From assembly GCF_003334255.1 (NCBI RefSeq), contig NZ_QOWU01000121.1: a stretch of DNA of 3,460 bases. One strand, given 5' to 3'. Under the pieces are notes generated by a model. That model saw only the letters and a program-made list of their open reading frames with translations. It did not search any database and was not told the DNA's origin. This DNA comes from Escherichia coli (lineage in GTDB: Bacteria > Pseudomonadota > Gammaproteobacteria > Enterobacterales > Enterobacteriaceae). Below are positions 1 to 3,460 of this stretch, piece by piece. The translations under genes were made by a program, and so were the position numbers. Each line of letters opens with the position of its first letter. Within the stretch, counting starts at the first letter, position 1.

Positions 1-3000
1 ATGAGCGGAAAACCAGCGGCGCGTCAGGGAGATATGACTCAGTATGGCGGTCCCATTGTCCAGGGTTCGGCAGGTGTAAGAATTGGCGCGCCCACCGGCG
101 TGGCGTGCTCGGTGTGTCCGGGCGGGATGACTTCGGGCAACCCGGTAAATCCGCTGCTGGGGGCGAAGGTGCTGCCCGGCGAGACGGACCTTGCGCTGCC
201 CGGCCCGCTGCCGTTCATTCTCTCCCGCACCTACAGCAGCTACCGGACCAGGACACCCGCGCCGGTGGGAGTGTTTGGCCCCGGCTGGAAAGCGCCTTCT
301 GATATCCGCTTACAGCTACGCGATGATGCACTGGTACTCAACGACAACGGCGGGCGGAGCATTCACTTTGAGCCGCTGCTGCCGGGGGAGGCGGTGTACA
401 GCCGCAGCGAGTCAATGTGGCTGGTGCGCGGTGGTAAGGCAGCGCAGCCGGACGGCCACACGCTGGCGCGGCTGTGGGGGGCGCTGCCGCCGGATATCCG
501 GTTAAGCCCGCATCTTTACCTGGCGACCAACAGCGCACAGGGGCCGTGGTGGATACTGGGGTGGTCAGAGCGGGTGCCGGGTGCTGAGGACGTACTGCCA
601 GCGCCGCTGCCGCCGTACCGGGTGCTTACCGGGCTGGCAGACCGTTTCGGGCGGACGCTGACGTACCGGCGTGAGGCCGCAGGCGACCTGGCCGGGGAAA
701 TCACCGGCGTGACGGACGGTGCCGGGCGGGAGTTCCGTCTGGTGCTGACCACGCAGGCGCAGCGTGCGGAAGAGGCCCGCACCTCTTCGCTATCTTCTTC
801 TGACAGTTCCCGCCCTCTCTCAGCCTCAGCGTTCCCCGACACACTGCCCGGTACCGAATACGGCCCCGACAGGGGTATCCGCCTTTCGGCGGTGTGGCTG
901 ATGCACGACCCGGCATACCCGGAGAGCCTGCCCGCTGCGCCACTGGTGCGGTACACGTATACGGAAGCCGGTGAACTGCTGGCGGTATATGACCGCAGCA
1001 ATACGCAGGTGCGCGCTTTCACGTATGACGCGCAGCACCCGGGCCGGATGGTGGCGCACCGTTACGCGGGAAGGCCGGAGATGCGCTACCGCTACGACGA
1101 TACGGGGCGGGTGGTGGAGCAACTGAACCCGGCAGGGTTAAGCTACCGCTATCTTTATGAGCAGGACCGCATCACCGTCACGGACAGCCTGAACCGGCGT
1201 GAGGTGCTGCATACAGAAGGCGGGGCCGGGCTGAAACGGGTGGTGAAAAAAGAACTGGCGGACGGCAGCGTCACGCGCAGCGGGTATGACGCGGCAGGAA
1301 GGCTCACGGCGCAGACGGACGCGGCGGGACGGAGGACAGAGTACGGTCTGAATGTGGTGTCCGGCGATATCACGGACATCACCACACCGGACGGGCGGGA
1401 GACGAAATTTTACTATAACGACGGGAACCAGCTGACGGCGGTGGTGTACCCGGACGGGCTGGAGAGCCGCCGGGAATATGATGAACCGGGCAGGCTGGTA
1501 TCGGAGACATCGCGCAGCGGGGAGACAGTACGCTACCGCTACGATGACGCGCACAGTGAGTTACCGGCGACGACAACGGATGCGACGGGCAGCACCCGGC
1601 AGATGACCTGGAGCCGCTACGGGCAGTTGCTGGCGTTCACCGACTGCTCGGGCTACCAGACCCGTTATGAATACGACCGCTTCGGCCAGATGACGGCGGT
1701 CCACCGCGAGGAAGGCATCAGCCTTTACCGCCGCTATGACAACCGTGGCCGGTTAACCTCGGTGAAAGACGCACAGGGCCGTGAAACGCGGTATGAATAC
1801 AACGCCGCAGGCGACCTGACTGCCGTTATCACCCCGGACGGCAACCGGAGCGAGACACAGTACGATGCGTGGGGAAAGGCGGTCAGCACCACGCAGGGCG
1901 GGCTGACGCGCAGTATGGAGTACGATGCTGCCGGACGTGTCATCAGCCTGACCAACGAGAACGGCAGCCACAGCGTCTTCAGTTACGATGCGCTGGACCG
2001 GCTGGTACAGCAGGGCGGCTTTGACGGGCGGACGCAACGTTATCATTATGACCTGACCGGAAAACTCACACAGAGTGAGGATGAGGGACTTGTCATCCTC
2101 TGGTACTACGATGAATCGGACCGTATCACTCACCGCACGGTGAACGGCGAACCGGCAGAGCAGTGGCAGTATGATGGCCACGGCTGGCTGACAGACATCA
2201 GCCACCTGAGCGAAGGCCACCGTGTTGCCGTCCACTATGGCTATGACGATAAAGGCCGCCTGACCGGCGAATGCCAGACGGTGGAGAACCCGGAGACGGG
2301 GGAACTGCTGTGGCAGCATGAGACGAAACACGCATACAACGAGCAGGGGCTGGCAAACCGCGTCACGCCGGACAGCCTGCCGCCGGTGGAGTGGCTGACG
2401 TATGGCAGCGGTTACCTGGCGGGAATGAAGCTGGGCGGGACGCCGCTGGTCGAGTATACGCGGGACAGGCTGCACCGTGAGACGGTGCGCAGCTTCGGCA
2501 GCATGGCAGGCAGTAATGCCGCATACGAACTGACCAGCACATACACCCCCGCAGGCCAGTTACAGAGCCAGCACCTGAACAGCCTGGTATATGACCGTGA
2601 CTACGGGTGGAGTGACAACGGCGACCTGGTGCGCATCAGCGGCCCGCGACAGACGCGGGAATACGGCTACAGCGCCACGGGCAGGCTGGAGAGTGTGCGC
2701 ACCCTCGCACCAGACCTGGACATCCGCATCCCGTATGCCACGGACCCGGCGGGCAACCGGCTGCCGGACCCGGAGCTGCACCCGGACAGTACACTCACAG
2801 TGTGGCCGGATAACCGCATCGCGGAGGATGCGCACTATGTCTACCGCCACGATGAATACGGCAGGCTGACGGAGAAGACGGACCGCATCCCGGCGGGTGT
2901 GATACGGACGGACGACGAGCGGACCCACCACTACCACTACGACAGCCAGCACCGCCTGGTGTTCTACACGCGGATACAGCATGGCGAGCCACTGGTCGAG

Positions 3001-3460
3001 AGCCGCTACCTCTACGACCCGCTGGGACGGCGAATGGCAAAACGGGTCTGGCGGCGGGAGCGTGACCTGACGGGGTGGATGTCGCTGTCGCGTAAACCGG
3101 AGGTGACGTGGTATGGCTGGGACGGAGACAGGCTGACGACGGTGCAGACTGACACCACACGTATCCAGACGGTATACGAGCCGGGAAGCTTCACGCCGCT
3201 CATCCGGGTCGAGACAGAGAACGGCGAGCGGGAAAAAGCGCAGCGGCGCAGCCTGGCAGAGACGCTCCAGCAGGAAGGGAGTGAGAACGGCCACGGCGTG
3301 GTGTTCCCGGCTGAACTGGTGCGGCTGCTGGACAGGCTGGAGGAAGAAATCCGGGCAGACCGCGTGAGCAGTGAAAGCCGGGCGTGGCTTGCGCAGTGCG
3401 GGCTGACGGTGGAGCAACTGGCCAGACAGGTGGAGCCGGAATACACACCGGCGCGAAAAG
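1..3460 (+). CDS. rhs: Rhs family YD-repeat protein, conserved core region (RhsA/B/C-like); 5' end complete at the ATG at nt 1, 3' end truncated by the window edge
   Basis: Manual translation of frame +1 gives 1153 sense codons with no stop from the ATG at nt 1 to the window end. The N-terminus [42 protein letters not shown] matches what I recall of E. coli Rhs core proteins. Many YD-repeat units are present, for example [13 protein letters not shown] (nt 1084-1122), [13 protein letters not shown] (nt 1282-1320), [14 protein letters not shown] (nt 1723-1764), [14 protein letters not shown] (nt 1909-1950), [14 protein letters not shown] (nt 2230-2271), [16 protein letters not shown] (nt 2833-2880) and [16 protein letters not shown] (nt 3001-3048). 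Codons are GC-rich at third positions. The paralog (rhsA, rhsB or rhsC) cannot be assigned from memory, so the symbol is family-level only. The upstream RBS and promoter are outside the window. Confidence 0.95.

Follow-up and report, generated by a model that had tools for sequence, protein, structure and literature searches.

The 3,460-nucleotide (nt) stretch of Escherichia coli DNA considered here (contig NZ_QOWU01000121.1 of assembly GCF_003334255.1; hereafter 'the window', at its full length) is, to judge from sequence identity, the first 3460 nt of rhsD, an Rhs-element core gene lying between ybbP and ybbC. This gene has been described since the early 1990s. Its part in the window can be entered as follows.

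1..3460, plus strand: the 5' 81% of rhsD (codons 1-1153 plus one base), recognized by the absence of stops, identity to annotated rhsD, a match to NF041261 and the ratio of non-synonymous to synonymous substitution rates (dN/dS)

Nt 1-3460 of the rhsD coding sequence (CDS) annotated in E. coli G1/2 (NZ_CP060083.1) and the window are 100% identical; that CDS is 4281 nt long, encodes 1426 amino acids (aa) and extends 821 nt (273 codons and the stop) beyond the window. A megablast comparison with 5426 complete E. coli genomes found the window in 3901, and matches covering at least 80% of the query in 3864; its 3460 bases are matched at 100% identity by strains G1/2, G6/7 and G8 but not by K-12, and each of the best 25 matches coincides with a CDS for which the annotation reads 'rhsD: rhs element protein RhsD'. 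K-12 RhsD (b0497, NP_415030.1) is the same gene, with the same start codon, length (1426 aa) and neighbours, and differs from the window by 23 substitutions (99.3% nt identity), 18 of them at third codon positions, with five amino acid differences. In G1/2 as in K-12, the reading frame is unbroken over its entire 1426 codons. The neighbours were read in matching genomes rather than from the window's own flanks: in G1/2, rhsD is flanked by ybbP and ybbC, and K-12 MG1655 is arranged alike. In an identical genome, the ATG is preceded at a distance of nine codons by an in-frame TGA, no other start codon intervenes and an AAGGG is found approximately 9 nt 5' of the ATG, which together identify nt 1 as the true start; GC content also drops sharply upstream. 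Within the E. coli clade I Rhs elements, rhsD has been placed in the rhsD-E subfamily (PMC2935791).

Frame +1 opens with the ATG at nt 1 and remains open through 1153 codons, whereas 40 and 44 stops interrupt frames +2 and +3, and 28, 12 and 39 the three frames of the minus strand. From base composition, approximately 32 stops would be expected in 1153 codons (the probability of none being about 7e-15), and frame 1 of 2000 dinucleotide-preserving shuffles contained 33.5 on average (standard deviation 5.4, minimum 17) and never zero. The sequence-only reading had claimed just such an uninterrupted frame, which both the translation and the six-frame stop count bear out; an in-frame stop that it might have overlooked was sought and none was found. 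Its description of the accompanying list of open reading frames (ORFs) could also be reproduced, since none of the 17 entries is in frame +1 and the three plus-strand entries belong to frame +3 (the one at 105) or frame +2 (those at 191 and 2591). Its suspicion that only ORFs closed by a stop are reported agrees with the description of the tool, which lists ORFs of at least 60 aa and omits those running off either end of the window, and this is why rhsD is missing from the list. To that reading it should be added that the window holds only part of the gene: according to the matching sequences, 273 codons and the stop follow downstream, and with them the toxin tip.

The expectation that the frame +1 product would prove to be an Rhs core protein was confirmed by profile searches. 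NF041261 ('RHS element core protein', an NCBIfam equivalog) matched residues 1-1153 over model positions 1-1156 of 1261 with 2535.6 bits, thus exceeding its curated cut-off of 2000 bits despite the truncation of the protein by the window. TIGR01643 found YD repeats in six stretches (9.6e-48), and Pfam RHS_repeat (PF05593) gave eight matches at E<=0.001 and six weaker ones. By this alignment, the 1153 residues in the window are Rhs core, ending approximately 105 residues short of the core end. Every hallmark of the family that was examined was found: the NF041261 score, the YD/RHS repeats, a PxxxxDPxGL motif followed by a variable tip, and a contrast in GC content. The repeats have no counterpart as DNA-level tandem repeats, none of which was found in the window by Tandem Repeats Finder down to a score of 30. 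Along the plus strand, the following parts of the protein can be distinguished.

1..141, plus strand: short PAAR-like N-terminus, 47 residues, with one PAAR repeat (PAARQGD...) and a putative function
136..369, plus strand: DUF6531 (aa 46-123), the predicted N-terminal plug of the Rhs cocoon (PF20148, E=2.8e-18)
784..828, plus strand: low-complexity stretch rich in Ser (aa 262-276) that carries five residues more than RhsA and RhsC, an insertion seen in the translation and the paralog alignment
958..2700, plus strand: YD/RHS repeat region (aa ~320-900), the predicted wall of the beta-cocoon (13 RHS_repeat matches, eight of them at E<=0.001; TIGR01643; alignment to solved shells)
3217..3417, plus strand: charged segment (aa ~1073-1139) just ahead of the RHS-associated core domain, delimited by the Tse5 alignment

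The N-terminus deserves a closer description. Pfam PAAR_motif matches residues 3-20 alone, at model positions 52-69 of 70 and with a marginal E-value of 0.27, and the alignment of residues 2-29 to two PAAR proteins, 9RCE_c and 4JIV_D (E 0.1-0.45), involves only their last repeat, where the position of RhsD Tyr15 is occupied by His. A complete PAAR domain (PF05488; three repeats, ~70-95 residues) was considered and rejected, only one repeat being matched, and there is no room for one because DUF6531 starts at residue 46. At the other end of the window, the charged segment is among the less conserved parts of the protein, with 70% identity to RhsA.

Comparison with rhsA reveals how the window has been allowed to change. 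Differences between the two are distributed over codon positions 1, 2 and 3 as 171, 146 and 468, and dN/dS in frame +1 is 0.17 (Nei-Gojobori). When the same alignment is read in the other frames, dN/dS is 1.7-2.2 with a single exception at 0.31, in the antisense frame that shares its third codon positions with rhsD, so that the low value is a mirror effect; that frame holds 39 stops. Strong protein-level constraint is thus confined to frame +1. The listed ORFs, the longest of which is entered below, fare differently.

2560..3417, minus strand: longest shadow ORF (285 aa), in register with the rhsD codons and not a gene (no family match, broken in paralogs, dN/dS 1.69)

That this ORF, or any other of the 17, might be a real gene overlapping rhsD is an explanation to which we attach a negligible chance. 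Its 285 aa do exceed the mean longest open run in the shuffles (235 codons) but fall within their range, the maximum across all six shuffled frames being 521 codons, and the length is fully explained by codon usage in rhsD. In the in-register antisense frame, stops arise only opposite sense TTA, CTA and TCA codons, and frame +1 contains just six, two and four of these, which accounts for the 12 stops of that antisense frame and, in turn, for the four ORFs located there (98, 138, 240 and 285 aa), two of which are the longest of all those listed. Conservation leads to the same verdict. In the counterparts of 2560..3417 in rhsA and rhsC a stop is present and the start codon is lost; 13 of the 17 listed ORFs carry stops at homologous positions in both paralogs and three more have lost their start codon there. 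The remaining one (39-230), which sits in the 94%-identical N-terminal region, is interrupted in rhsA and intact in rhsC. As candidate genes all 17 were therefore rejected, 16 failing conservation in both paralogs and the last being broken in rhsA. An NCBIfam scan of the 10 longest returned no match, and RefSeq annotates nothing other than rhsD at this region in identical or near-identical genomes. The two further claims of the sequence-only reading, that frame +1 is the only genuine gene and that the listed ORFs are false, are thereby upheld, the former by RefSeq annotation of exactly that frame, the latter by the missing family matches, the breaks in paralogs and dN/dS values that are either 1.7-2.2 or attributable to the mirror effect. 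The 17 listed ORFs are chance open frames, by-products of a gene rich in GC overall (64%) and at third codon positions (77%), a composition that favours long chance ORFs. Likewise, no RNA gene was found in the window by Rfam (at gathering thresholds) or by ARAGORN.

Since rhsD is already known and routinely annotated, nothing in the window is biologically new: RefSeq annotates the gene in thousands of genomes, and structures have been solved in the Rhs family. The value of the case is methodological. A list restricted to stop-closed ORFs misses any gene longer than the window, and in a GC-rich gene it offers long shadow ORFs instead, here of up to 285 aa. Frames truncated by the edges of such a window therefore belong in its annotation.

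What lies beyond the window is best described from the full-length protein. An RHS-associated core domain (PF03527) is found at aa 1155-1190 and the PxxxxDPxGL motif reads PLQQIDPMGL (aa 1249-1258), after which a 168-aa C-terminal tip follows that contains DUF4329 (aa 1292-1411). The next gene, ybbC, is annotated as encoding a PF15631 family protein, which we take to be the Pfam entry for Imm-NTF2 family 2. No NCBIfam names were found for the toxin tip or YbbC. DUF4329 has been equated with Tox-JAB-2, a predicted nuclease that is paired with immunity proteins of Imm-NTF2 family 2 (Zhang et al., PMC3482391). The neighbourhood as a whole comprises ybbA, ybbP, ybbC, an orphan rhs tip and ylbG, with no vgrG, eag or other genes of a type VI secretion system (T6SS). 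Upstream of the ATG is a 430-nt AT-rich intergenic region (L001 7571-8000 in G1/2), and genomic SELEX has identified a constitutive promoter between ybbP and rhsD, TTAATA-17-TGTAAT, that was flagged as H-NS-associated (PMC3946193).

This AT-rich upstream region with its H-NS-associated promoter, and the lack of linkage to vgrG, are what one might cite in support of the view that rhsD, although its frame is open, is a relic, silent or decaying and no longer functional, as could be expected in strains devoid of a T6SS. We regard this as highly improbable in view of the intact 1426-codon frame in both G1/2 and K-12, the dN/dS of 0.17 relative to rhsA, the preponderance of third positions (18 of 23) among the polymorphisms and the match of at least 80% coverage held by 3864 of the 5426 complete genomes.

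Among known systems, the closest are the other Rhs proteins of K-12. RhsA and RhsC (rhsA-B-C-F subfamily) share the architecture of RhsD and are colinear with it across all 1153 residues. Identity is 94% in the first 50 residues (RhsD versus RhsA/RhsC), and RhsD and RhsA are 77% identical in nucleotides and about 77-78% in amino acids; indels of five, one and seven residues separate RhsD from RhsA/RhsC, and the C-terminal tips and immunity genes of these two are unlike those of RhsD. The best solved homologue is a distant relative, Tse5 of Pseudomonas aeruginosa (PA2684; PDB 8CP6; E=2.2e-100), a T6SS-exported Rhs toxin, followed by other solved cocoons such as RhsA of P. protegens (7Q97, E=9.6e-63), Tse15 and others, down to 2e-42. 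RhsD and Tse5 have a common layout, with a PAAR-like N-terminus of ~47 residues, a DUF6531 plug, a cocoon of YD repeats and an aspartyl-protease plug whose last residues are DPxGL, and the RhsD aspartyl-protease plug aligns with the end of the Tse5 shell. In Tse5, the N-terminal fragment M1-K47 was called a PAAR-like domain, is needed for secretion and is cut off between K47 and P48, and the shell opens with the DUF6531 plug (residues 48-124), which holds that fragment (PMC10684867). RhsD residues 48-129 align with the first 79 residues of this shell (8CP6_B 1-79, E=1.4e-10), and the plug starts in both proteins at residue 48 with PVNP(M/L)LG(S/A)K (PVNPLLGAK in RhsD). P48 is preceded by Lys in Tse5 but by Asn in RhsD; the residues of this site and of the one after DPxGL align in the two proteins, and RhsD may be cleaved at N47|P48. 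The charged segment of RhsD is ~45 residues longer than that of Tse5, RhsD 1072-1140 corresponding to Tse5 chain positions 982-1005, the Tse5 toxin is a pore-former whereas the RhsD tip is DUF4329, and for Tse5 export on the VgrG1c spike has been reported (PMC10684867) whereas rhsD adjoins no vgrG. More remotely, a YD-repeat cocoon with an RHS-associated core, as in RhsD, also occurs in the TcB-TcC cocoon of Tc toxins and the YD shells of teneurins. Matches to the YD shell were obtained for teneurins only (E=1e-9 to 7e-20) and matches to the C-terminal plug were at about 1e-5 to 1e-8; the similarity is restricted to remote sequence resemblance, and both the delivery machinery and the N-terminal parts differ from those of RhsD.

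Taken as a whole, we are highly confident in an explanation in which the window is the 5' part of rhsD, frame +1 is its sole real coding frame and RhsD is, by analogy with these proteins, a putative polymorphic-toxin carrier. The corresponding mechanism would unfold as follows. The PAAR-like N-terminus of ~47 residues would dock on a VgrG spike of a T6SS, the DUF6531 domain would close one end of a hollow cocoon and the YD repeats (aa ~320-900) would build its wall. At the other end, the aspartyl-protease plug with its PLQQIDPMGL motif (aa 1249-1258) would cut off the 168-residue C-terminal toxin (DUF4329/Tox-JAB-2, the predicted nuclease), which would be kept inside the cocoon until delivery, and YbbC, of the Imm-NTF2-2 family, would protect the producer cell.

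Several points weigh against this scheme. The PAAR domain is incomplete, its one repeat being matched at E=0.27, in G1/2 the gene is not adjacent to vgrG or other T6SS genes and, to our knowledge, a T6SS is lacking in E. coli K-12, whose rhsD is 99.3% identical to the window. The features of the toxin tip come solely from other genomes with an exact match, as the window itself ends before the tip, and export, cleavage and toxicity are what we infer for RhsD from solved homologues and the literature. In addition, rhsD has been called an orphan (PMC7216683). The delivery route is consequently the weakest step, owing to the partial PAAR, the lack of vgrG linkage and the absence of a T6SS in K-12.

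An alternative in which T6SS delivery is not the main role would have the C-terminal toxin expressed internally, as a toxin-antitoxin module with its immunity protein. A precedent exists in Salmonella rhs, where promoters inside the gene, 5' of the PxxxxDPxGL motif, have been reported together with toxin-antitoxin behaviour (PMC7043789), and the incomplete PAAR-like N-terminus and missing vgrG linkage would fit this proposal. We consider it unlikely. Promoter-like sites within the window are at chance level (one found versus 0.6 expected), as are terminator-like sites (two versus 1.3). Moreover, the delivery part, 1153 residues long, shows purifying selection, which would not be needed if the gene served only as an internal toxin-antitoxin module, and Tse5, the closest solved relative, has the same short N-terminus and is exported by the T6SS (PMC10684867). 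That selection and the Tse5 precedent lead us to favour an effector role for RhsD over a toxin-antitoxin module. A related proposal, which we judge quite improbable, is that docking on the spike as a canonical PAAR cone does not apply to the orphan Rhs proteins of E. coli, RhsD among them, which might instead complete a cone in trans or act free of the T6SS, for instance as an internally expressed toxin-antitoxin module. It is prompted by absences only, namely the one-repeat N-terminus with Tyr15 in place of His and the lack of vgrG linkage, and an equally short N-terminus has already been described for T6SS-exported Tse5.

The polymorphic-toxin carrier proposed here also has the composition of a classical Rhs element. 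GC content is 64% in the window (66%, 50% and 77% at the three codon positions), about 60-69% along the core, 43-46% upstream and 32-37% in the C-terminal tip, and this contrast fits Hill's definition of Rhs elements by a GC-rich core and an AT-rich tip and flanks, as quoted in PMC2935791.

A few minor observations complete the description of the locus. The differences between the window and K-12 rhsD are unevenly placed, 21 of the 23 clustering in nt 249-684 and 12 of these in nt 249-334, and at the clustered sites agreement with rhsA is split roughly evenly between the window allele and the K-12 allele, a pattern that resembles a patch of mosaicism or gene conversion among rhs copies. Besides the Ser-rich stretch, a further insertion relative to RhsA/RhsC, of seven residues (MAGSNAA), is found at aa 835-841 (2503-2523 of the window). 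In G1/2, ybbP, upstream of rhsD, is annotated as frameshifted (L001 5305-7570), and 3' of ybbC lies an orphan fragment consisting of an rhs core end and a tip (L001 12713-13399), whose GC content of 49.5%, against 32-36% in adjacent windows, is typical of displaced Rhs tips. Finally, the AT skew of the window rises past nt ~1000, roughly at the start of the YD repeats, from near 0 to +0.25-0.30, A being far in excess of T, and stays at that level.

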